NCBI GenBank assembly: GCA_039934635.1
Contig: JBDTLT010000009.1
Location: forward strand, 6,697 to 70,696
Origin: Acidimicrobiales bacterium
GTDB taxonomy: Bacteria; Actinomycetota; Acidimicrobiia; Acidimicrobiales; WLNW01
DNA length: 64,000 nt
Direction: 5' to 3'
The notes beneath the pieces are model-generated. The model made no database searches. It saw only the letters and a program-made list of their open reading frames with translations, and was not told the origin of the DNA. Of this stretch, positions 1-31,850 are shown piece after piece; position 1 is the stretch's first letter; the number at the start of each line of letters is the position of its first letter. The translations under genes and the position numbers were made by a program.

Positions 1-353
1 GCTACCCCACTGTCATCATCGACATGGCGCTCAACTTGCTGATCGCCCTCGTGGTCGTGGCGGCCGTCCGCGCGGTGGGCACCGCGCTGGTCGTCGCACT
101 GCTGACGACTCCCGCTGCGACGGCGCGCATCGTGTCCTCGCGCATCACGACGATGATGGTGCTGTCGTGTGCAATCGGCGCCATCGGGGGCTGGCTCGGC
201 CTGGTCATCAGCTACGACGCATCGATCCATTACGACGTGCGGCTGGCCGCCGGCGCCACCACGGTCGTTGTGCTCACGGTCGCGTTCGCGGCAGTTGCCG
301 TGGCGTTCGCGCTTGCGCGCCGGCGCCACGCCCGCCAGGCGGTCGTGTCATGA
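1..353 (+). CDS. Metal (Mn/Zn/Fe-type) ABC transporter permease, ABC-3 family; 3' part only, the 5' end is off-window
   Basis: The frame is open from position 3 (YPTVIIDMALNLLIALVVV...). The product is very hydrophobic, with the TTPAATARIV motif typical of ABC-3 permeases. Its stop TGA (351-353) overlaps the next ATG (ATGA). Confidence 0.8.
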   Translation, partial: YPTVIIDMALNLLIALVVVAAVRAVGTALVVALLTTPAATARIVSSRITTMMVLSCAIGAIGGWLGLVISYDASIHYDVRLAAGATTVVVLTVAFAAVAVAFALARRRHARQAVVS

Positions 354-1225
354 ACCATCTCCTCGATCTCTACGACTCGACGATCATGCAGCGAGCGCTC
401 ATCGAAGCCGCACTCGTCGGCGCGTTGTGCGGTGCAGTGGGTATCCACGTGTTGCTGCGCCGGCTGCCGTTCTTCACGATCACCGTGGCGCACGCGACCT
501 TCCCCGGGGTCGTCCTCGCGGTCATCCTCGGGGCCAGCGTGCTCACCGGCGCGGTGGTGTTCGCGTTGTTACTGGTGTTGGGCATCTGGCTGACCGGTGT
601 CGAAGAACGACTGGCGACATCGACTGTCGTCGGGGTCGCACTCGCCGGTTCGTTCGGCGTCGGCGCCATGTTGCAATCGACGCAGAACGGCTTCACCAAG
701 GACCTCGCGTCCATCTTGGTCGGGCAGATCATCGCCGTGCAGCGCGGCGATCTGATCGCCACCGCCATCATCGGCGGGCTCGTACTCGCGACTATGGTCT
801 CGACGCACAAAGAGCTCGTCCTGTCGGCGTTCGACCGCACCGAGGCGCAAGCGCAGGGTCATTCCCGCACGGTCGACCTGCTCGCGCTGTTGATCGTCGC
901 GGCCGCGGTCGTGACGACGGTGCCCGCGGTGGGCACGATCTTGTCGGTGGCCTTGCTGACGATCCCCGCGATGACGGCTCGGCTCGTGACGCGGCGCGTC
1001 GAGACCGCGATGGTCACGTCGGCCGCGATCGGCGCGCTCGCCGGGGTAGTCGGGCTCACGATCTCGGCTCAATGGCGGGTCGCGGCCGGTGCCGCGATCA
1101 CTCTCACCGCAGCGGGGTTGTTCTTGCTCGTGCTCCTGTTCACGACGGTGACCCGCCGTGCGACGTCAACCGAGAAGGCCGTTGTGTTCCCCGATGCGGG
1201 GCGCACGCCGGAGCTGGCTCGCTGA
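350..1225 (+). CDS. Metal ABC transporter permease, ABC-3 family (second permease of the pair)
   Basis: I trimmed ORF 167..1225 to the ATG at 350 (MNHLLDLYDSTIMQRALIEA...). The product is multi-TM and has the LLTIPAMTARLV motif, paralogous to the preceding gene. The upstream 61 codons are Arg-rich junk overlapping the previous gene. Confidence 0.85.
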   Translation: MNHLLDLYDSTIMQRALIEAALVGALCGAVGIHVLLRRLPFFTITVAHATFPGVVLAVILGASVLTGAVVFALLLVLGIWLTGVEERLATSTVVGVALAGSFGVGAMLQSTQNGFTKDLASILVGQIIAVQRGDLIATAIIGGLVLATMVSTHKELVLSAFDRTEAQAQGHSRTVDLLALLIVAAAVVTTVPAVGTILSVALLTIPAMTARLVTRRVETAMVTSAAIGALAGVVGLTISAQWRVAAGAAITLTAAGLFLLVLLFTTVTRRATSTEKAVVFPDAGRTPELAR

Positions 1226-2401
1226 CCCGTTGCAGATGAACGGCAAGCCGAGATACGTATAGGACGCCCCGAGGTCCTCGTGCTCGACCTCGACCGGGAA
1301 CCCGCGAGCGACGAAGTGGGGATCGCTCAAGACCTCTTCGGGCGAGTACACCACCGTGGCCGCGATGCCGTGGTGCTGTGCCCCCATGAAGAACTCATAC
1401 GCAGTCGAGCGTTCGGCCATGAACCGAATCGCTTCGCGGCCGGCGTTGAAGATCGCCTGCGCTTCGGGATCGGTGGCGATCTCGTTGAGTTGCACGCCCC
1501 CGCGGGCCACACCCATCTCCAAGAAGAACGCTTCGCCATACTCTTCGCGGACACCTTCGTCGTCCAACCAATCGACGAGGCGCTGATACTCGGCCGCGCT
1601 GCGCGGTGGCACGCCGCTGTGCACGGTACGGCCGTCTGCCGCCTCCGCGAACGAGCTCGTCGTCATACGCACCGACGCGTGCCGCCCGGTCTGTCGTTGC
1701 ACCGTACGTTGCGCGACGAGGTAGTCGTAGGTCGCGGCTTCGGTGGTGACGTTGACCGCCGCGTGCAGGCTCACATCGATGAATTGCCCGATCCCGGTCG
1801 CGCCACGATGCAACACCGCGGTGAGCGCAGACATCGTCGCGAAGATCGAGCCGGTCTGATAGCCCTGGTTGCCGCCGCCGCGCACCGGGGGTATCGAATG
1901 GTCGTCGTAGCCACAGCTCCACACCGGCCCGCCGCCCGCCAGCACCGTGAGATCGGTCGAGAGCTCGGACGCCCGTGGACCAGACCGCCCGAACGGCGTG
2001 ACCGACACCCAGATCATCGCCGGGTTGAGCGAGCGCAGATCGGGATAGTCGAGCGCCTTGGCGGCCAGCACGCCCGGCATCTCGGATTCGACCACGATGT
2101 CGGCCGTCGCGATCAGCGACCGCAGCGCATCGGCCCCGGCGCGGTCGTCGAGATCGATCGTCACACCAAGCTTGTTGGTGTTGTAGTGCCACCACCACAA
2201 GCTGCGTTCGGGGTCTTCGACGTCGCCGGCGAAGGGCGCCCAATGGCGCGTCTCGTGACCGCCCGGTGGTTCGACGACGATCACTTCCGCGCCGTAGATC
2301 GCCAGCAGCTTGCCCGCGAAGCAGGCGCGTGACGAGGCCAACTCCACGACGCGCAACCCGGACAACGGCCCGCCTGGCCCGGCACTCTCGCTTCGCTCCA
2401 T
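1166..2401 (-). CDS. CoA-transferase family III (CaiB/BaiF-type)
   Basis: The N-terminus LSGLRVVELASSRACFAGKLLAIYGAEVIVVEPPGG is the family-III glycine-rich fold. Its ATG shares one nt with the TGA of the upstream paralog (TGATG at 2399-2403). Confidence 0.88.
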   Translation of the reverse strand: MERSESAGPGGPLSGLRVVELASSRACFAGKLLAIYGAEVIVVEPPGGHETRHWAPFAGDVEDPERSLWWWHYNTNKLGVTIDLDDRAGADALRSLIATADIVVESEMPGVLAAKALDYPDLRSLNPAMIWVSVTPFGRSGPRASELSTDLTVLAGGGPVWSCGYDDHSIPPVRGGGNQGYQTGSIFATMSALTAVLHRGATGIGQFIDVSLHAAVNVTTEAATYDYLVAQRTVQRQTGRHASVRMTTSSFAEAADGRTVHSGVPPRSAAEYQRLVDWLDDEGVREEYGEAFFLEMGVARGGVQLNEIATDPEAQAIFNAGREAIRFMAERSTAYEFFMGAQHHGIAATVVYSPEEVLSDPHFVARGFPVEVEHEDLGASYTYLGLPFICNGSASQLRRAPRIGEHNGLLG

Positions 2402-3657
2402 CAGATGATCCCGTCGGTGCGAAGGTCGTCGATCTGCGCGGTGGTCATCCCGAGCAGTTCGCCGAAGACCTGTTCGTTGTGCTCACCGAGGCAGGGCGCG
2501 CCGCGTGCGATCACCCAATCGGTTTCGCTGAAATGCGCCGGCTCGCCGTCGACGCGCACCTCGCCCATCTCGCGGTGCTCCACGGTCGGCCAGAGCCCCC
2601 ACGCGGACGTGTTCGTGTCCGCGTCGATGCGCTCCGCCGGCTTTTGCACCGCCGAGGCCGGCACACCGACGGCTTGCAGCCGCGCCGCGAGATCGAACTT
2701 GTTCCACGAACGAGTCGCGGCGTCGATGGCGAGGTCGAGTTCGTCTTCGTGGGCGAGCCGGCCCGCGAGCGTGGCGTAGCGCGCATCGCCGCACCACGGT
2801 TGGGCCATCACTTCGGCGAAGCGCACCCAGTCGTGGTCGTCGCGACAGGACACTGCGACCCAATCGTCGTCGCCGGTGCACGCGTAGATGCCGTGGGGCG
2901 CCATCGGTGGGAACTGGCTGCGGTTCGAATTCGGCATGCCGGTGCGGCGCAGCGGGCGGCCGTTGACCGTGTAGTCGAGCACGACCGGGCCGAGCAACGC
3001 TGCCCCCGCTTCGGTGCACGACATGTCGACCCACTGCCCCTCGCCCGTGCGTTGGTGGTGCACCAGTGCGCAGAGGATCGCGATCGCCATGATGTTGCCG
3101 CCGTGGTGGTCCATGTAGCTGTAGCCCCACCCCGCAGGCGGCAGACCGGGCAATCCCGACGAGAACGTGAGCCCGCAGGCCGCTTGCACGATCGGGCCCC
3201 ACGTGCGAAAGCTGCGATACGGCCCCGTGTGACCGAACCCGCAATTCGACACGTAGATGATGTCGTCCTTGATCGCGCGCAATGCGGGGTAGTCGAAGCC
3301 CCACCGCTCGAGGACCCCCGCGGCAAAGTTCTCGCTGACGACATCGCTGATCTCGACGAGTTGGCGCAGCAACTCTTTGCCCCGATCGGTGCGCAGGTTC
3401 AGTGTGATGCCGAGCTTTTCGACGTTGTGGTTCTGGAACCCGCCGCCGAGCTCGATGCCGCGACGATCGTCCTGGAACGGCTCGTTGCCCCGCAAGATGT
3501 CCCACTTGCCTTGCCGCACCGGGTCCTCGATGCGAATCACTTGCGCGCCGAGCGCCGCGAGCCACCGCGTTGCGCCCGCACCCGCGAGTTGGCCGGTGAA
3601 GTCGCAGATGCGGATGTGCGAAAGCGCGGCCGATTTCGCGGGGGTAACCGTCGTCAT
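2401..3657 (-). CDS. CoA-transferase family III (CaiB/BaiF-type), first of a translationally coupled pair
   Basis: IRICDFTGQLAGAGATRWLAALGAQVIRIEDP and ...ENFAAGVLERWGFDYPALRAIKDDIIYVSNCGFG are typical family-III signatures. Confidence 0.88.
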   Translation of the reverse strand: MTTVTPAKSAALSHIRICDFTGQLAGAGATRWLAALGAQVIRIEDPVRQGKWDILRGNEPFQDDRRGIELGGGFQNHNVEKLGITLNLRTDRGKELLRQLVEISDVVSENFAAGVLERWGFDYPALRAIKDDIIYVSNCGFGHTGPYRSFRTWGPIVQAACGLTFSSGLPGLPPAGWGYSYMDHHGGNIMAIAILCALVHHQRTGEGQWVDMSCTEAGAALLGPVVLDYTVNGRPLRRTGMPNSNRSQFPPMAPHGIYACTGDDDWVAVSCRDDHDWVRFAEVMAQPWCGDARYATLAGRLAHEDELDLAIDAATRSWNKFDLAARLQAVGVPASAVQKPAERIDADTNTSAWGLWPTVEHREMGEVRVDGEPAHFSETDWVIARGAPCLGEHNEQVFGELLGMTTAQIDDLRTDGII

Positions 3658-3692
3658 GGGACGAACCTATTCGAAATGAGTACCGTGGTTCC

Positions 3693-4691
3693 ATGACACT
3701 CGCCGCAGAACGCCATCAGTACGACGACTACGACTCCCTGCTCGAGGACTATTTCGAAAAGGGTTGGACCGATGGGTTACCGGTCGTGCCGCCGACGCCC
3801 GAAAAAGTCGAGCACTTCCTGCGCGTCGCCGGTCTCGAACCCGACACCGAGCTGGGTGCAGTACCGACGCGCGAAGTGGTGGTGACCGCCGAGCAGGCCG
3901 CCATCAACGCAGTGATGGCCGGATGCAAGCCCGAATACTTCCCCGCGGTCGTTGCGGCAGTGCGCGCGCATCTCGATCCGATGGGCAATTGCCACTCGAC
4001 CACCGGCACGCTCTCGGGCGCGGCGCATGCGGTCATCATCAATGGACCCATCCGCAACGAGATCGGCGTGGCCAGTTACTCCGGTTGCTTCGGGCCGGGT
4101 TTCCGCGCCAACGCCACCATCGGCCGCGCGTTACGGCTCGTGATCCGCAATGTCTGTCGGGCGATTCCCGGCTTTCTCGACCGCGCATCGTTCTCGTGGC
4201 CGCTGCGTTACTCGTTCTGCTTTGGCGAGAACGAAGAAGCCAGCAACTGGACACCGATGCACGTGCAACGCGGATTCCGGCCCGACCAGAGCACCGCCAC
4301 CGTCATGTCGATCATGAAGTTCGCACCGGCGAGCGATCTCACGAGCCGTACCGCCGAGGGCATCTTGGATTCGATCGTGAAGAACGCGCGCTGGTCCGGT
4401 GTGGGCGGCGACCACTGGCTCGGTGATGACCACAACGTCATGTTCGTGTTCGGCACCGAGCATCACCGCTTCTTCATCGAAGAGGACTATTCGAAAGAGC
4501 GCATGCAGGAGTACCTGTGGCCCAAGCTCTACGCGGAGACGAGTGGTCCCAACGACCGCCGGGTGAACGTGGCCAAGCCCGAGGGCATCTTGTTGGTCGC
4601 TGCCGGCGGGCCGGGTATGGGTGAGACGTGGATGCTGATGCCGCATCTCGCCCACGCGATCATCCGCGAAATCGAACCGGCCCGGGCCTGA
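3693..4691 (+). CDS. Conserved protein of unknown function, 332 aa, several conserved-looking Cys; first gene of the selenoprotein operon
   Basis: This is a clean ATG ORF with good codon bias. Motifs are GWTDGLPVVPPT, MAGCKPEY, GNCHSTTGT and YSGCFGPGFRAN. I recognise no family. Confidence 0.8.
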   Translation: MTLAAERHQYDDYDSLLEDYFEKGWTDGLPVVPPTPEKVEHFLRVAGLEPDTELGAVPTREVVVTAEQAAINAVMAGCKPEYFPAVVAAVRAHLDPMGNCHSTTGTLSGAAHAVIINGPIRNEIGVASYSGCFGPGFRANATIGRALRLVIRNVCRAIPGFLDRASFSWPLRYSFCFGENEEASNWTPMHVQRGFRPDQSTATVMSIMKFAPASDLTSRTAEGILDSIVKNARWSGVGGDHWLGDDHNVMFVFGTEHHRFFIEEDYSKERMQEYLWPKLYAETSGPNDRRVNVAKPEGILLVAAGGPGMGETWMLMPHLAHAIIREIEPARA

Positions 4692-4769
4692 GGCACGCGG
4701 CCCGTGCGGCAAGGGAGCCTGAACGGGGAACCCTGGTAACATCAACGGACCGGCGATGGAGGTAGCACC

Positions 4770-5309
4770 ATGGCATTGATCGGACTCGATCCGACGAGTG
4801 GTCCCATCGGGGGCGACAGCGGCAAACGCCTCGCTCCCCGTCCGGTTTCGCTGGCGGGACAAGTGGTCGGGCTCGTCGCCAACGGTCTCGGCCAAGGCGA
4901 GGCGTTCCTCGACGCCCTCTACGAAGAGCTCAACAAGATCGACGATCTCCAGGGCAAGGTCAAGGTCATCAAGGGGTCGGTGTCGATCGCGCCGTATCCC
5001 GACGATTGGAAGCGCTTGACCGAAGGAGCCACCGTCGCCATCACCGGCTTCGGTGGTTGAGGCAGCTGTAGCGCCCGCAGTTTGCGGGACGCCGTCGAAC
5101 TCGAGTGGGCCGGCATTCCGTCGGTGGCCATCATTCACTACGAGATGACCGGGTCGGCCAAGGCGATCGCCCGCATCAGCGGACACGAAGACTACGACTT
5201 TGTCACGGTCGGCTATCCGCACATCCCGACCGCGGTGTGGACTGCCGACGAGGCCAAAGAGATCGCGTCGGATGTTGCGCCGCTCGTGCGCAAGCTCTTG
5301 ACTTCGTAG
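4770..5309 (+). CDS. Putative selenoprotein with a U-G-S-C redox motif (179 aa, Sec at codon 97, TGA 5058-5060); the ORF caller splits it into 4770..5060 and 5082..5309
   Basis: Both called ORFs are in the same frame. Only TGA plus 7 sense codons (GSCSARS) separate them. GGAGG lies 9-13 nt before the ATG at 4770, and the second half has no RBS or ATG. The context is ITGFGG-U-GSCS, with a hairpin 10 nt after the TGA. It resembles what I recall RefSeq naming 'UGSC family (seleno)protein'; I could not verify this. Confidence 0.72.
5071..5092 (+). promoter_or_regulatory. SECIS-like stem-loop downstream of the TGA at 5058
   Basis: The sequence gcgcccgc-AGUUU-gcggg(a)cgc gives an 8-bp stem with one bulged A and a 5-nt apical loop containing G and U. 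It starts 10 nt after the UGA, which is the spacing expected for bacterial SECIS elements. Confidence 0.6.
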
Positions 5310-5311
5310 AC

Positions 5312-5806
5312 ATGAGTGGTGACAACCTCCAACGCGAGGTGCGGTTGCTTGCCGCGCATCGTGCCATCGAGCAACAGATCTACCGCATGGGCTACGCGCT
5401 CGAGGATGGCGACTTCGAGGTCGTAGGCGAGCTGTTGCAACACGCGACATTCGGCGCCGACATGATCGGGCGCCGCGTCTTCACCGGACGTGACGAGATC
5501 CGTGGCCAGTACGAGCGCACCAACATTGTCTATCCGGGCAAAGGCCGAGCGACCCGTGAGATGTACACCAACGTCGTCATCGACATCGATCTCGATGCAT
5601 CGACGGCCCGATCAACCACGATGTACACGGTGGCACAGCAGATCCCCGACAGCGGAGCGCCGTTCGCGATGTTGGTGGCGGGGCGTTACGAAGACGAATG
5701 GGCCGTCATAGACGACGACTGGCACTGGACAGACCGCTTCATCGTCGTGCAATTCAAGAACGACCTCGACCGGCACATGCACACCGGTTCGCAGCCCTAC
5801 AACTGA
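5312..5806 (+). CDS. SnoaL-like / NTF2-fold protein
   Basis: I trimmed ORF 5105..5806 to the ATG at 5312, 2 nt after the selenoprotein stop. The product (MSGDNLQREVRLLAAHRAIEQQIYRMGYALEDGDFE...WHWTDRFIVV) matches the SnoaL_4/NTF2-like pattern. Confidence 0.7.
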   Translation: MSGDNLQREVRLLAAHRAIEQQIYRMGYALEDGDFEVVGELLQHATFGADMIGRRVFTGRDEIRGQYERTNIVYPGKGRATREMYTNVVIDIDLDASTARSTTMYTVAQQIPDSGAPFAMLVAGRYEDEWAVIDDDWHWTDRFIVVQFKNDLDRHMHTGSQPYN

Positions 5807-5807
5807 C

Positions 5808-5824
5808 CGGCAAACCGTTTGCCG
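5808..5824. terminator. Near-perfect palindrome between convergent genes; possible bidirectional terminator hairpin
   Basis: cggcaaac-c-gtttgccg has 8-bp arms. It sits in the 18-bp gap between the stops at 5806 (+) and 5825 (-). There is no clear U-tract. Confidence 0.35.
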
Positions 5825-6700
5825 TCAGACGACGTCGAGCAGTGAACCGGGTTGCAGCCCGGCGGCGCGGATCTCTTTGATGATCTGCACGAGGGCGTTG
5901 CCGTCCTGCGACTGCTCGCCGACGTGGAACAACAAGATGCCGCCCGGGACGAACGCCTTGCGGCAGATCTCGACGATCTGCGGCGCGGTCTTGCCCATCC
6001 ACCCGAGCGAGTCGACGGTCCAGAGCGCGTCGTACTTGTAGCCGAGCTGGCCGAGCAGCTTGTCGGTCTCGTTGTCGACGTCGCCGAACGGCGGCCGGAA
6101 CCACGGCTTGGACGTGACGTTTGCGCCGGCAAGGTTCTTGAACACCTGCTCGGCCTTGTCCAGCTCGGCGGTGCGAGCTTCACGATTCAGCAGCGCCGTC
6201 GACGACGAGAAGCCGGTCCACGACTTGTGGCTGTATGTGTGATTGACGAGGTGATGACCTTCGGCGACGATGCGCCGGAACATGTCGGGGTTCTGTTCGG
6301 CCCACTTGCCCGTCATGCCGAAGCTGACCTTGATCTGCTCGGCTTTGAGAGTGTCGAGAATCTGGCCCGTGAACCCGACGTCGGAACCCGCGTCGAAGGT
6401 GAGGGCGACGACCTTGCGCCCGTTGGTTCCCTTGCGCATCTGCAGCGCGGGCGCGCCGGCCGGTGGCGCAGTCGTCGTCGACGCACCGGCGACGGTGCCG
6501 ATCGGTGCGGTAGTGGCGGATGCCGCGCGCGTCGTGGCGGGCGCGGCGGTACTCGCCGTCGCTTCGACTTGACCAGAGGCCGTCGATGTCACTCCGGGCT
6601 CGTCGTCGGGCGCCGCCTGTGGGGCGCCGCCGCACGCCGTGAACACGAGTGCACACGCGACCGAGAGCGCGACGCGAGAAAGAATGCGGGGAGACGGCAC
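5825..6700 (-). CDS. Polysaccharide deacetylase (NodB/CE4 family) lipoprotein with an Ala/Thr-rich linker
   Basis: CE4 motifs are present: LTFDAGSD, HLVNHTYSH, RPPFG. The signal and lipobox read RILSRVALSVACALVFTAC. The start is set at the GTG at 6700. The called 464-aa ORF extends antisense across the SDR gene and I rejected that extension. Confidence 0.8.
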   Translation of the reverse strand: MPSPRILSRVALSVACALVFTACGGAPQAAPDDEPGVTSTASGQVEATASTAAPATTRAASATTAPIGTVAGASTTTAPPAGAPALQMRKGTNGRKVVALTFDAGSDVGFTGQILDTLKAEQIKVSFGMTGKWAEQNPDMFRRIVAEGHHLVNHTYSHKSWTGFSSSTALLNREARTAELDKAEQVFKNLAGANVTSKPWFRPPFGDVDNETDKLLGQLGYKYDALWTVDSLGWMGKTAPQIVEICRKAFVPGGILLFHVGEQSQDGNALVQIIKEIRAAGLQPGSLLDVV

Positions 6701-6782
6701 CGCGCAACAGTACCGAGACGGCCCGATAGGTGCAGAACGGGCGGCGTGACAGAATGGCCATCCATCTTCCAGGGGGCTTTCC

Positions 6783-7586
6783 ATGACCGATCCGTTCGCC
6801 GCGTACGACATGACCGGAAAGGTGGCAGTCCTCACCGGAGGGGCCAGCGGCATCGGCGAGGCGTCAGCCGAGCTCATCGCCGGCGCCGGCGGCGCGGTCG
6901 TGTTGGGCGATATCGACGAAGGTGGAGCCGAAAAGGTCGCGCAGCGCATCCGTGATGCCGGCGGTCGCGCCGTCGCCCAGCGGTGCAACGTCGCGCAAAA
7001 AGCCGACGTCGACGCGCTCATCGATCGAGGCGTGGCGGAATTCGGCAGGGTTGACGCGATGGGCAACATCGCGGGCGTGATGAACGCCGATCTCGTCATC
7101 AACATCACCGAGGCCGAGTTCGACCGCATCATCGCCATCAACATGAAGGGCGTGCTGTGGGGTTGCCAGGCTGCGCTGCGGGTGATGATGCCGCAGGGTT
7201 CGGGCAGCATCATCAACATCTCGTCCGCCGCGATCGACTATCCCAACAGCAACGTGTCGCTCTACGCCATGACCAAAGCGGCCGTGGCCATGTTGACGAT
7301 GGAACTCGCCATCGAGGCCGGCCCGCACGGCGTGAGGGTCAACTGCCTCGCACCCGGTCAGACGGCCACCAACTTCGGCCGCTATCTCCGTGAAGACGAC
7401 AAGGGTGAGATCGACCCCGACAAGTACGCCGGGTACGTGAGCCGCGGCACCAGCCTCTCGCCGATCGGCCGTCTCGGCGAAGCCATCGACCAGGCACACC
7501 TCGTGCACTATTTGGCCAGCGATGCGTCTCGCTTCGCGACCGGCGCCATCTTCCGTGTGAATGGTGGTGTGGGGATCGTCTGGTGA
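6783..7586 (+). CDS. SDR-family oxidoreductase
   Basis: The Rossmann motif is TGGASGIGEA and the YxxxK is YAMTKAAV. The stop overlaps the next start (GTGA at 7583-7586). Confidence 0.9.
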   Translation: MTDPFAAYDMTGKVAVLTGGASGIGEASAELIAGAGGAVVLGDIDEGGAEKVAQRIRDAGGRAVAQRCNVAQKADVDALIDRGVAEFGRVDAMGNIAGVMNADLVINITEAEFDRIIAINMKGVLWGCQAALRVMMPQGSGSIINISSAAIDYPNSNVSLYAMTKAAVAMLTMELAIEAGPHGVRVNCLAPGQTATNFGRYLREDDKGEIDPDKYAGYVSRGTSLSPIGRLGEAIDQAHLVHYLASDASRFATGAIFRVNGGVGIVW

Positions 7587-8794
7587 CGTCCGATCCCTAC
7601 TTCGATCCGCGCGATCCGAACCACGTTCGCAATCCCTACGCGACCTACGCCCGGCTGCGCGCCGAAGCGCCGGTGCATCACAGCCCGCTCGGGTTTTGGA
7701 TCATCTCTCGCTACGACGACGTGATGGAGATGCTGCGCGACCCGCGCGGCAGTCGCGAGATGCACCAGTGGTCCGAGGCCTACGAGCAGAGCCATTCCGC
7801 GGCCGGGCCCGCCTGGGAACAGTTCGTGACGGATCAGGTTCAGTTCATGGATCCGCCGAACCACACACGCCAACGCAAGCTGGTCGCGAAGGCGTTCACG
7901 CCCATGGCGATCGACGCGAACCGTCCACGGGTCGAACAGATCGTGCGCGAGCTCATCGATGCCGGTGAAGGTCGGCTCGACGTCGTAGAGGAGCTGGCCC
8001 GGCCCCTTCCCTACCGCATCATCTCCGAGATGCTCGGCGTGCCGTGGGACGACCCGCGTCTCCAACCCGAATGGATCACCATGATCGTGCGCGGCTTGTC
8101 GACGCTCGTCACCGACGACGACATGCGCAATGCCCGCGACGCGCTCGTCGGTATCACCGACCTCTTCCACGAGGCAATCGAGGACCACCGCCGGCGCCCG
8201 CGCAATGACCTCATGTCGGCGTTGATCGCGGCCGAGGAAGAGGGCGACCGCCTGAGCACGAACGAACTGTTCGCGCTGTCGATCAACCTGCTCGTGGGTG
8301 GGTCGGAGACGACGATGAACCTCATCGCCAGCGCGCTCTATTCGCTGACACGATTTCCCGACCAACTCCAGCGCCTGAGGCGCCACCCAGGACTCATGCG
8401 CAACGCCGTCGAGGAGTTTCTGCGCTTCGAGTCGCCCGCGCAATTCCAGTCGCGCACGGCGACGCAGCCCATCGTCGTGGGCGGTGTCGAGATTCCGCCC
8501 CGTCAGACCATCTACCTCTGCCTCGGGTCGGCCAATCACGACGACGATCGCTGGGATAGACCCGACGAGCTCGACATCGAGCGCGGCGAGCTGCAGCACA
8601 TGGCCTTTGGCTACGGCATCCACCACTGCCTCGGAGCGTCGCTCGCTCGGCTCGAGACCGCGGTCGCCGTGCAGGCGCTCGTGGAGCTGCCCGATCTCGG
8701 GCTTGTCGGGCCCGAACCCGAATGGGGCGGCGCCGCCGCGCTGTCGCAACGAGGCTTGAAGCACCTCGACATCCGCTGGCAATACCGCCAATAG
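7583..8794 (+). CDS. Cytochrome P450
   Basis: The heme-thiolate loop is FGYGIHHCLGASLA, the EXXR is EEFLRFESP, and the I-helix reads LLVGGSETT. Confidence 0.92.
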   Translation: MTSDPYFDPRDPNHVRNPYATYARLRAEAPVHHSPLGFWIISRYDDVMEMLRDPRGSREMHQWSEAYEQSHSAAGPAWEQFVTDQVQFMDPPNHTRQRKLVAKAFTPMAIDANRPRVEQIVRELIDAGEGRLDVVEELARPLPYRIISEMLGVPWDDPRLQPEWITMIVRGLSTLVTDDDMRNARDALVGITDLFHEAIEDHRRRPRNDLMSALIAAEEEGDRLSTNELFALSINLLVGGSETTMNLIASALYSLTRFPDQLQRLRRHPGLMRNAVEEFLRFESPAQFQSRTATQPIVVGGVEIPPRQTIYLCLGSANHDDDRWDRPDELDIERGELQHMAFGYGIHHCLGASLARLETAVAVQALVELPDLGLVGPEPEWGGAAALSQRGLKHLDIRWQYRQ

Positions 8795-30641: not shown

Positions 30642-31850
30642 ATGAATGCGACACGCAACTCAGCAGACGGACCACTCCGCGGTGTTCGCATTGTCGATTT
30701 GTCGACCGTGCTGTCCGGCCCCATGGCGACCACACTCCTCGCCGATCAGGGCGCGACCGTGATCAAGGTCGAAGCACCCGGCGCCGGCGACCTGACGCGA
30801 CAGATCTCGACGCGCAGCAACGGCGTGACGGCCATGTTCCAGGTCGCCAACCGCGGGAAACGCGCGATCACCATCGATCTGCGTCGTGAACACGGCCTGG
30901 CGGTGCTGCACAAGCTGGCCGCCGGCGCCGATGTGTTCGTGCAGAATTTCCGGCCCGGCGTCGTCGACCGCATCGGCATCGGCTACGACGCGCTGCGCGC
31001 ATTGAACCCCGAGTTGATCTATCTGTCGATCAGCGGTTTCGGATCGGTCGGCCCTCTCGCCCAGACGAAGGTGTACGACAACTTGATCCAAGCCGCGTCG
31101 GGCTTCGCGCACGGCCAAGCGGGCGCCGACGGCGCCCCCACGTTCATCAAGAACCTTGCCTGCGACAAGATCACTGCACTCACCGCCGCACAGGCGATCA
31201 GCGCGGCGCTCTACGCACGAGCAATGGGTCGCGGAGGCCAGCACATCGAGCTCGCCATGCTCGATGCGGCGGTGTGGTTCCTGTGGACCGACCGGGCAAC
31301 CGAATTCACCTGGACCGGCGAGGATGTCAAGGTGTTGCCGTCGTTGTCGCAGTACGACGTCACGCGATTCAAAGATGGATGGGGCACGATCGCCGCGGTG
31401 ACCGACGAAGAGTTCGCCGGGCTCTGTCGCGCCCTCGATGTCGCGCACATCGCCGAGGACCCTCGATTCACCACGATGACCAAGCGTCTCTCGGATCCCG
31501 ACTATCCCCGCGTCTACCGCGAGATCGTGCAAGGGGCCGCCGGCAAATTCACGATCGGCGAAGCGCTGCGCCGCCTGAGCGAAGCCAAGGTGCCCGCCGT
31601 CGCGGCCGTGGCGCTGTCGGAGATTCCGGACCATCCTCAGATCATCGCCAACGAGCTCATCGTCGCGGACGAGCATCCGCTCGCCGGTCCGCTGCAGCAA
31701 CCGCGGCCCGCGGCGCGGTTCTCCGAGACGCCGGCGGCACCCGCGGGGCCGGCCCCGGTCCCCGGACAGCACACCGACGCCATCCTCGCCGAGCTCGGCT
31801 ACAGCGCGACCGAGTGCGCCGCGTTGCGATCCGATGGCGCCGTCGCCTAA
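30642..31850 (+). CDS. CoA-transferase family III (CaiB/BaiF-type)
   Basis: LRGVRIVDLSTVLSGPMATTLLADQGATVIKVE and ...VFVQNFRPGVVDRIGIGYDAL are family-III signatures. Confidence 0.9.
   Translation: MNATRNSADGPLRGVRIVDLSTVLSGPMATTLLADQGATVIKVEAPGAGDLTRQISTRSNGVTAMFQVANRGKRAITIDLRREHGLAVLHKLAAGADVFVQNFRPGVVDRIGIGYDALRALNPELIYLSISGFGSVGPLAQTKVYDNLIQAASGFAHGQAGADGAPTFIKNLACDKITALTAAQAISAALYARAMGRGGQHIELAMLDAAVWFLWTDRATEFTWTGEDVKVLPSLSQYDVTRFKDGWGTIAAVTDEEFAGLCRALDVAHIAEDPRFTTMTKRLSDPDYPRVYREIVQGAAGKFTIGEALRRLSEAKVPAVAAVALSEIPDHPQIIANELIVADEHPLAGPLQQPRPAARFSETPAAPAGPAPVPGQHTDAILAELGYSATECAALRSDGAVA

Follow-up and report, generated by a model that had tools for sequence, protein, structure and literature searches.

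A recurrent gene pair of a UGSC selenoprotein and a ~330-residue partner: a candidate thioredoxin-recycled reductase of Acidimicrobiales and other prokaryotes

We analyzed a 64,000-nucleotide stretch of an Acidimicrobiales bacterium genome (GenBank assembly GCA_039934635.1, contig JBDTLT010000009.1, positions 6,697 to 70,696 of the forward strand; hereafter the window), in which the gene of a UGSC-family selenoprotein (4770–5309, + strand, 179 residues) follows that of its partner P332, a 332-residue protein of an unnamed family (open reading frame (ORF) 3693–4691, + strand). The two genes form a conserved unit that recurs well beyond the Acidimicrobiales, and their near-universal adjacency together with natural fusions argues that the two proteins are functionally tied. 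With moderate confidence, we propose that P332 and UGSC constitute a two-protein enzyme, a thioredoxin-recycled reductase working with selenocysteine (Sec) or cysteine (Cys), in which P332 would serve as the substrate subunit. This redox reading is preferred because genes for TrxB or TrxA share operons with the pair in several lineages.

The UGSC frame is interrupted by a single TGA only (5058–5060, + strand), situated in the context GFGG-U-GSC and hence within the U-G-S-C redox motif, and a GGAGG sequence lies 9 nt 5′ of its ATG. Read with Cys in place of Sec, the window protein belongs to Pfam family PF24696 (128.5 bits against a cutoff of 25, E 3.9e-37), and it scores 79.6 bits against the NCBIfam equivalog NF041046, under the 125-bit cutoff of that model. 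The G-G-C-G-S-C of full-length Cys-form homologs aligns with G-G-U-G-S-C of the window protein, placing their Cys codons at the TGA. A bacterial Sec insertion sequence (SECIS) hairpin at 5071–5092 (+ strand), about 14 nt 3′ of the UGA, emerged from comparative covariation across UGSC genes: its upper stem pairs 5074–5079 with 5083–5088 below a GUU apical loop, with an A-G-U-N-U apex and an A bulge in the lower stem. Across 17 diverse sequences the six pairs of the upper stem are 99% paired, with compensatory changes in four of the six; the covariation score of 0.558 compares with a shuffled mean of 0.126 and is reached by 0 of 500 shuffles, and slid registers of the stem all collapse. The register of the hairpin is kept even between UGSC subfamilies with differing amino acids at this place. 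Minimum free energy folding of the region alone was uninformative (z −0.32), and the comparative analysis was decisive. Scans of the window for Rfam families and tRNAs gave no match, hence neither a tRNA-Sec nor a hit to a curated SECIS model. As the TGA aligns with Cys codons and the downstream hairpin covaries, we conclude that it is a genuine Sec codon.

UGSC is a catalogued family (PMC1976440, PMC2398784, PMC9312934, PMC13188914), whose first listed members came from Hyphomonas neptunium and from metagenomes of the ocean. It was presented as a selenoprotein of unknown function in 2007 (PMC1976440), a 2026 review places it among selenoproteins with largely uncharacterised functions (PMC13188914), and our literature searches found no function, partner or electron donor for it. 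A UGSC protein joined to a conserved domain named “Unknown_1” appears in the 2008 Global Ocean Sampling (GOS) paper (PMC2398784); this domain is probably the P332 family.

To place the pair in a wider context, 80 genome loci with a P332 homolog (36–71% identity to the window protein) were fetched, covering Dehalococcoidia/SAR202, Acidimicrobiia, other Actinomycetota, Rokubacteria/Methylomirabilota, Binatia, Poribacteria and Delta-, Gamma-, Alpha- and Betaproteobacteria. A wider set including replicons of cultured organisms comprises 96 loci besides the window. UGSC genes were called first by tblastn, which placed one beside P332 in most loci, and then with a UGSC profile of higher sensitivity that reads through TGA; for flanking genes we relied on targeted tblastn, on the annotation of plasmid records and on contigs with Pfam labels. 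Of the 80 loci, 73 have a UGSC-like gene no more than 2.5 kb from the P332 homolog, and in 63 of these the two are less than 600 bp apart on the same strand, with P332 preceding UGSC in 40 and UGSC preceding P332 in 23. One in-frame TGA occurs at a U-G-S-C (or U-G-G-C) motif in 69 of the 73 UGSC partner genes, and among strict-motif matches across the fetched loci the codon at the Sec position is TGA 42 times versus TGC or TGT 8 times; Sec is strongly preferred over Cys in this family. UGSC subfamilies (in L037, L048, L066, L078 and other loci) vary in the residues before Sec (GG-U, GD-U, AD-U, GS-U and GY-U), a few read U-G-G-C, and the more divergent subfamilies were missed by plain tblastn. 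The pair is also found on replicons of Natrinema, Haloterrigena, Halosolutus, Arthrobacter, Roseovarius, Variovorax and Paracoccus. It is in the Cys form in Arthrobacter sp. ERGS1:01, Roseovarius sp. THAF8 and Variovorax sp. SRS16 and in the Sec form in Paracoccus ferrooxidans, P. versutus carries a P332 homolog, and Vibrio europaeus and Sporomusa termitida possess a fused UGSC/P332 form.

Such fusions are frequent. Among the best 150 representatives at 50% identity, 28 combine UGSC and P332 in a single polypeptide, with either of the two in front: eight are full-length Cys-form UGSC-P332 proteins, two are P332-UGSC proteins that end at the Sec codon, and the remaining 18 start with the UGSC part that follows the Sec codon. 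These 18 are Sec-containing fusions whose gene call was started past the TGA. Seven further representatives (P0248, P0253, P0258, P0260, P0270, P0272 and P0278) are tandem P332-P332 proteins of ~710 residues, and P332-UGSC-P332 gene trios occur in L021 (8352–10942) and in Halosolutus (L093, 4242–7086), arrangements that hint at a heteromeric or pseudo-dimeric P332 core. One 499-residue protein, P0343, combines a P332 domain with an AhpC/TSA thioredoxin-fold domain bearing a CPTS motif instead of UGSC; the redox partner of P332 appears to be exchangeable. Modules also occur in paralog arrays, with three within 10 kb in L079, two in L034 and a further array in L013, which suggests substrate diversification.

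The initial annotation had described a three-gene operon, with the selenoprotein lying between the 332-residue protein and a SnoaL/NTF2-like protein. The local layout is as it stated: the SnoaL gene (5312–5806, + strand; PF13577 SnoaL_4, 52.3 bits against a cutoff of 24, E 7e-14, which makes it a member of that family) has its ATG at 5312, 2 nt past the UGSC TAG at 5307–5309. At a cutoff as loose as E ≤ 1, the other 96 loci yielded no SnoaL homolog, and the three genes do not hold together as a conserved unit. The conserved unit is two genes, P332 and UGSC, and SnoaL is a lineage-specific passenger outside it. It is probably co-transcribed with UGSC in the window, judging from the 2-nt gap, the lack of a terminator-like site between the P332, UGSC and SnoaL genes, and a weak hairpin over the SnoaL stop codon between the convergent genes (5803–5828, strand not assigned, −13.2 kcal/mol). 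This hairpin is a possible, weak candidate for the transcript end, rated so because its z-score is only −0.85.

P332 itself has no match among catalogued families or solved structures. Its translation holds all four motifs listed for it at the outset (GWTDGLPVVPPT, MAGCKPEY, GNCHSTTGT and YSGCFGPG), and the statement that it could not be assigned to a family was upheld: no Pfam or NCBIfam model matched it, searching the PDB sequences with a profile built from 50 homologs gave nothing at E ≤ 10, and P332 together with four distant paralogs gave no meaningful Pfam match at E ≤ 10, the sole entry being a sub-threshold hit of one paralog to DUF7740 (E 0.064, 13.9 bits against a cutoff of 28). The family is large, with at least 7979 clusters at 90% identity in a word-indexed search and 5722 representatives at 50% identity in an exhaustive profile search at E ≤ 0.001; its named members are all “hypothetical”, and none carries a Pfam domain. 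Structure prediction of the 332-residue protein alone, proposed in the initial annotation as a check, gave a confident AlphaFold2 model from a 50-sequence alignment (predicted local distance difference test (pLDDT) 89.6, predicted template modeling score (pTM) 0.91). Foldseek searches of this model against the PDB returned no fold match (best template modeling score (TM) 0.26, root-mean-square deviation above 10 Å), and the predicted fold would thus be an undescribed one.

Conservation was assessed over 133 representatives that are mutually less than 50% identical, with positions given in the numbering of the window protein. The most conserved positions are D27, G28, P30, C78, N117-G-P119, R138, N140, R145, R148, C176, E179, E181, W186, H190 and H257, with R145 at 100%, E179 and N140 at 99%, D27 at 97%, C78 at 96% and C176 at 90%. 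Cys100, located in GNCHSTTGT, is not conserved and is Leu in 83 of the 133 representatives. Because Cys100 is unconserved and Cys176 is replaceable, Cys78 is the primary candidate for a catalytic thiol of P332. A GrdE-like pyruvoyl proenzyme, with cleavage at Asn-Cys100 in GNCHSTTGT, was considered for P332 and ruled out, as Cys100 is mostly Leu.

Genomic association with the thioredoxin system bears on the electron donor. A TrxB-like gene is located within ~4 kb on the P332 strand in 8 of 97 loci (8 of 51 clusters at 70% identity), distributed over six taxonomic classes, compared with ~0.3 loci expected by chance, a rough estimate for a gene present at one to two copies per genome. The annotated gene order is trxB-trxA-P332-UGSC in Arthrobacter sp. 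ERGS1:01 (locus tags AL755_RS00575 to RS00560) and P332-UGSC-trxB in Roseovarius sp. THAF8, and in Variovorax sp. SRS16 trxB is found two genes upstream within the same gene run. In Haloterrigena turkmenica the next gene after P332 encodes a 303-residue TrxB-like flavoprotein, in the Acidimicrobiaceae locus L021 a TrxB-like gene directly precedes the module, and in Halosolutus (L093), a Streptosporangiaceae contig (L095) and a Dehalococcoidia locus (L066) one is placed 2–4 kb away on the same strand.

This arrangement calls to mind the clostridial glycine/sarcosine/betaine and D-proline reductases (GrdB/GrdE and PrdB/PrdA), in which a UxxC selenoprotein cooperates with a larger substrate-specific protein, electrons are delivered by thioredoxin and thioredoxin reductase encoded in the same operon, and the chemistry proceeds via a selenoether and then a selenenyl-sulfide. 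The operon logic of the Arthrobacter, Roseovarius and Variovorax loci is alike, and by analogy we infer that the P332-UGSC pair may follow the logic of glycine and D-proline reductase without being homologous to them. P332 shows no detectable homology to GrdE or PrdA and has no conserved pyruvoyl-forming residue, and the hosts of the pair are mostly aerobic heterotrophs rather than Stickland fermenters. That UGSC might be a distant GrdB or PrdB was ruled out, since none of 50 UGSC members gave a GRDB (PF07355) or Gly_reductase Pfam match at E ≤ 10.

For the fold of UGSC we used an AlphaFold2 model of the Cys homolog P0121, which is 56% identical to the window protein (pLDDT 92.7). The model is a five-stranded parallel alpha/beta structure of flavodoxin-like type, with Sec/Cys97 placed between strand 3 and helix 3, and its top PDB fold neighbors are generic flavodoxin-like domains with a TM of ~0.5. 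Thioredoxin folds have a mixed beta-sheet and carry the redox motif after strand 1. A thioredoxin fold is ruled out for UGSC by the model, which has five beta-alpha units with parallel strands and the motif after strand 3; the 2008 GOS paper had guessed a thioredoxin-like fold (PMC2398784).

The thioredoxin linkage would also suit a general antioxidant or thiol-disulfide system, for instance a peroxidase or a reductase of protein or low-molecular-weight disulfides, rather than a substrate-specific metabolic reductase. The UxxC motif, the AhpC/TSA domain that takes the place of UGSC in one fusion and the absence of a catabolic pathway recurring around the pair are in line with this alternative, as is the high abundance of UGSC in aerobic surface waters, where the GOS paper counts it among the most abundant selenoproteins (PMC2398784). 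We nevertheless regard it as unlikely: the invariant Arg, Asn and Glu of the ~330-residue partner point to a small-molecule pocket, the neighbors of the pair in cultured strains include LysR regulators and transporters for organic acids, arrays of two to three paralogous modules (L079, L034, L013) are unusual for housekeeping antioxidant enzymes, and the predicted UGSC fold is neither that of thioredoxin nor that of peroxiredoxin.

If the pair is a thioredoxin-recycled, substrate-specific reductase, its reaction could proceed as follows. UGSC would present Sec and Cys (U-G-S-C) at the start of a helix, and the Arg, Asn, Glu and Asp residues of P332 appear suited to holding a small anionic substrate. 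P332 would bind and activate the substrate, which would then be attacked by the selenolate; a cysteine, either Cys100 of UGSC or Cys78 of P332, would resolve the adduct to yield a selenenyl-sulfide, and this would finally be reduced by thioredoxin and NADPH-thioredoxin reductase. The substrate probably differs between paralogous subfamilies.

Several observations weigh against this proposal. Six or seven loci carry P332 with no UGSC gene beside it; of the seven counted among the 80, one is a 2-kb contig. Cys176 of P332 is replaced by Val in some UGSC/P332 fusions, so that a fixed two-cysteine site is not universal. Most loci, the window included, have no trxB nearby; a housekeeping copy could serve them. 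The neighboring genes are heterogeneous and do not name a single pathway, and C78, C176, H190 and H257 of P332 could be metal ligands instead.

The surroundings of the pair in cultured strains comprise LysR regulators, organic-acid transporters (TRAP, TTT, MFS and ABC) and catabolic enzymes. Among the latter are CoA-transferase, enoyl-CoA hydratase, HMG-CoA lyase, members of the isocitrate lyase/PEP mutase family, aconitase X with DUF126, enolase, members of the phosphosulfolactate synthase family, amidohydrolase and short-chain dehydrogenase/reductase (SDR); from these genes, small carboxylates are inferred as substrates. Individual loci deserve mention. On plasmid pFER4 of Paracoccus ferrooxidans (L087, 6396–8053 and 11368–13143), a Sec-form UGSC gene annotated as two small hypotheticals adjoins P332, with selB 3 kb downstream of the module and genes for DsrE, TusA and cysteine desulfurase upstream. 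Aconitase X and DUF126 genes adjoin the UGSC-P332 fusion genes of Vibrio europaeus pVEu (L085, 5076–10363) and Sporomusa termitida pSPTER (L088, 2878–9477), followed by an enolase-family gene in Vibrio and by the gene of a 475-residue FAD-dependent oxidoreductase in Sporomusa. Phosphosulfolactate synthase (ComA) family genes are located near the module in Natrinema (L083, 4889–5356), Arthrobacter (L084, 5713–6501) and a betaproteobacterial metagenome-assembled genome (L079, 11104–11808).

In the window, P332 is separated by a divergent intergenic region of only 35 nt (3658–3692) from two family III coenzyme A (CoA) transferase genes on the opposite strand, an A-type of 411 residues (1166–2401, − strand; PF02515, E 1.6e-63) and a B-type of 418 residues (2401–3657, − strand; PF02515, E 3.2e-89), the A-type gene being coupled to the upstream B-type gene by a TGATG overlap that joins the stop of one to the start of the other; both the 35-bp gap and the overlap had been noted before and are as described. 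A sigma-70-like consensus was not found in 3658–3692. The divergent start codons are separated by 33 nt in one close relative (L097, 2794–2828), abut or overlap in another (L098, 5001–5002) and are 160 nt apart on the P0006 contig; with distances of only 35, 33 or ~0 nt, the promoters must lie inside the neighboring coding regions, or the mRNAs are leaderless. Both proteins match PF02515 over its full length (profile positions 1–366 of 366). The 411-residue protein finds its best PDB match in 9fn0_A (3e-44, vs 1e-14 for 9fn0_B) and the 418-residue protein in 9fn0_B (2e-57, vs 6e-27 for 9fn0_A). Since each subunit thus best matches a different chain of the heteromeric 9fn0, the succinyl-CoA:(R)-benzylsuccinate CoA-transferase BbsEF, formation of a heteromer, as the initial annotation had suggested, is plausible at the level of sequence. 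The 418-residue protein retains Asp183 (YMDHH) at the position of the chain B Asp, whereas the 411-residue protein has Tyr181 there, as chain A does in the HMMER alignments, which suggests one catalytic and one non-catalytic subunit type. The likeness to BbsEF (9fn0) consists in two adjacent paralogous genes of which only the B-type keeps the aligned active-site Asp; as differences, the window subunits are only 28% identical to each other and reach no NCBIfam equivalog cutoff, and the window has no bbs or benzylsuccinate synthase genes nearby.

These genes are the basis for an alternative in which the P332, UGSC and SnoaL genes make up a single pathway unit and their products act, jointly with the divergently encoded heteromeric CoA-transferase, on a CoA thioester, for example in the reductive removal of an acyl-CoA substituent. 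The 35-nt divergent gap and the tight gene spacing agree with it, and three of the five close relatives examined (86%, 79% and 75% identity) show the pair immediately beside P332 in divergent orientation. Further afield, tandem CoA-transferase pairs adjoin the module in L018 (50% identity), L020 and L034, in the last between two modules, single CoA-transferase genes are found near it in L077, Roseovarius and Natrinema, and an enoyl-CoA hydratase cluster occurs within 5 kb of the module in 12 loci. Set against this, SnoaL is missing from all other loci, and ~90% of the genome loci are without a CoA-transferase within 10 kb: a first tblastn pass found such genes in only 7 of 80, and none is adjacent (within ~7 kb) in L001–L017, the closest genome-contig loci at 55–71% identity. 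In the 78% relative the CoA-transferase pair faces a different operon, SDR-SnoaL_4-glyoxalase, with MscL between the pair and P332; the 74% relative has no pair adjoining P332, a CoA-transferase gene ~6 kb upstream, and a Znu-type transporter abutting P332. Family III CoA-transferases are moreover very dense in these genomes (three in the 64-kb window, the third being a 402-residue ORF at 30642–31850, + strand, 26–37% identical to the pair), and by a rough count three loci have one within 1 kb versus ~0.9 expected from far flanks. We therefore consider the CoA-transferase link to the module lineage-specific and statistically weak, and the three-gene reading improbable. The BbsEF-like pair nearby suggests, weakly, that in the Acidimicrobiia lineage the organic acid is also handled as a CoA thioester. 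Of the neighborhood whose recurrence the initial annotation proposed to check, the P332-UGSC pair does recur, the CoA-transferases do so by half (three of five close relatives, and sporadically beyond) and SnoaL never does; likewise, its notion of a Sec/Cys redox system acting on a CoA thioester or a related acid gains from the TrxB and TrxA operons on the redox side, and its CoA side remains a weak, lineage-limited association.

ABC-3 (Znu/Mn-type) permease genes are encoded upstream in the window (1–1225, + strand). In the 74% relative, a ZnuA-ATPase-permease-permease set leads into P332 with a 19-nt gap (compared: L081, 2553–5982, and the P0011 contig), and the CoA-transferase pair of the window sits between the ABC-3 genes and P332 as if inserted. 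Such transporter genes bear on a further alternative, in which P332 would be a Zn or Fe metalloprotein with its conserved Cys and His residues as ligands, and the pair would handle metals or selenium/sulfur instead of reducing an organic substrate. C78, C176, H190 and H257, each 82–96% conserved, could supply the ligands; in the 74% relative, Znu-type ABC genes immediately precede P332 on its strand, and in the window they flank the inserted pair, a zinc ABC-transporter binding protein adjoins the module on an Acidovorax plasmid, and DsrE, TusA, cysteine desulfurase and selB genes are near the module in P. ferrooxidans. The transporter link is, however, limited to one clade and one plasmid, with ABC-3 genes clustered in only six loci, C176 is dispensable in some members, and the strong Sec preference and the trxB linkage would be left unexplained, which makes this alternative very unlikely in our view.

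Downstream of the SnoaL gene, a 464-residue ORF on the − strand (5825–7219), polysaccharide-deacetylase-like with an NHTYSHKSW motif, shares over 400 nt with a 267-residue SDR gene (6783–7586, + strand); translation of the ORF probably begins far downstream of the first start codon available. The SDR gene is followed by a P450 gene with the heme motif FGYGIHHCLG at 7583–8794.

The thioredoxin-recycled P332-UGSC reductase that we favor might, tentatively and at less than even confidence, represent an undescribed class: a cofactor-independent, thioredoxin-driven selenoenzyme with a new-fold catalytic subunit, present as thousands of variants among aerobic oligotrophs (SAR202/Dehalococcoidia, Acidimicrobiia, Rokubacteria, Binatia) and haloarchaea, and performing reductive bond cleavage or C=C reduction of small organic acids without a presently known enzyme. 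The orphan selenoprotein UGSC gains a defined and often fused ~330-residue partner, a probable source of electrons and hosts that can be cultivated for tests, and a partner that has no family model or structural match, combined with trxB/trxA operons, turns into a concrete, testable hypothesis for its function. If true, a new selenoenzyme class would explain the abundance of UGSC in ocean and freshwater metagenomes and, should the chemistry be new, would extend the carbon metabolism of very abundant uncultured lineages by one enzyme class.

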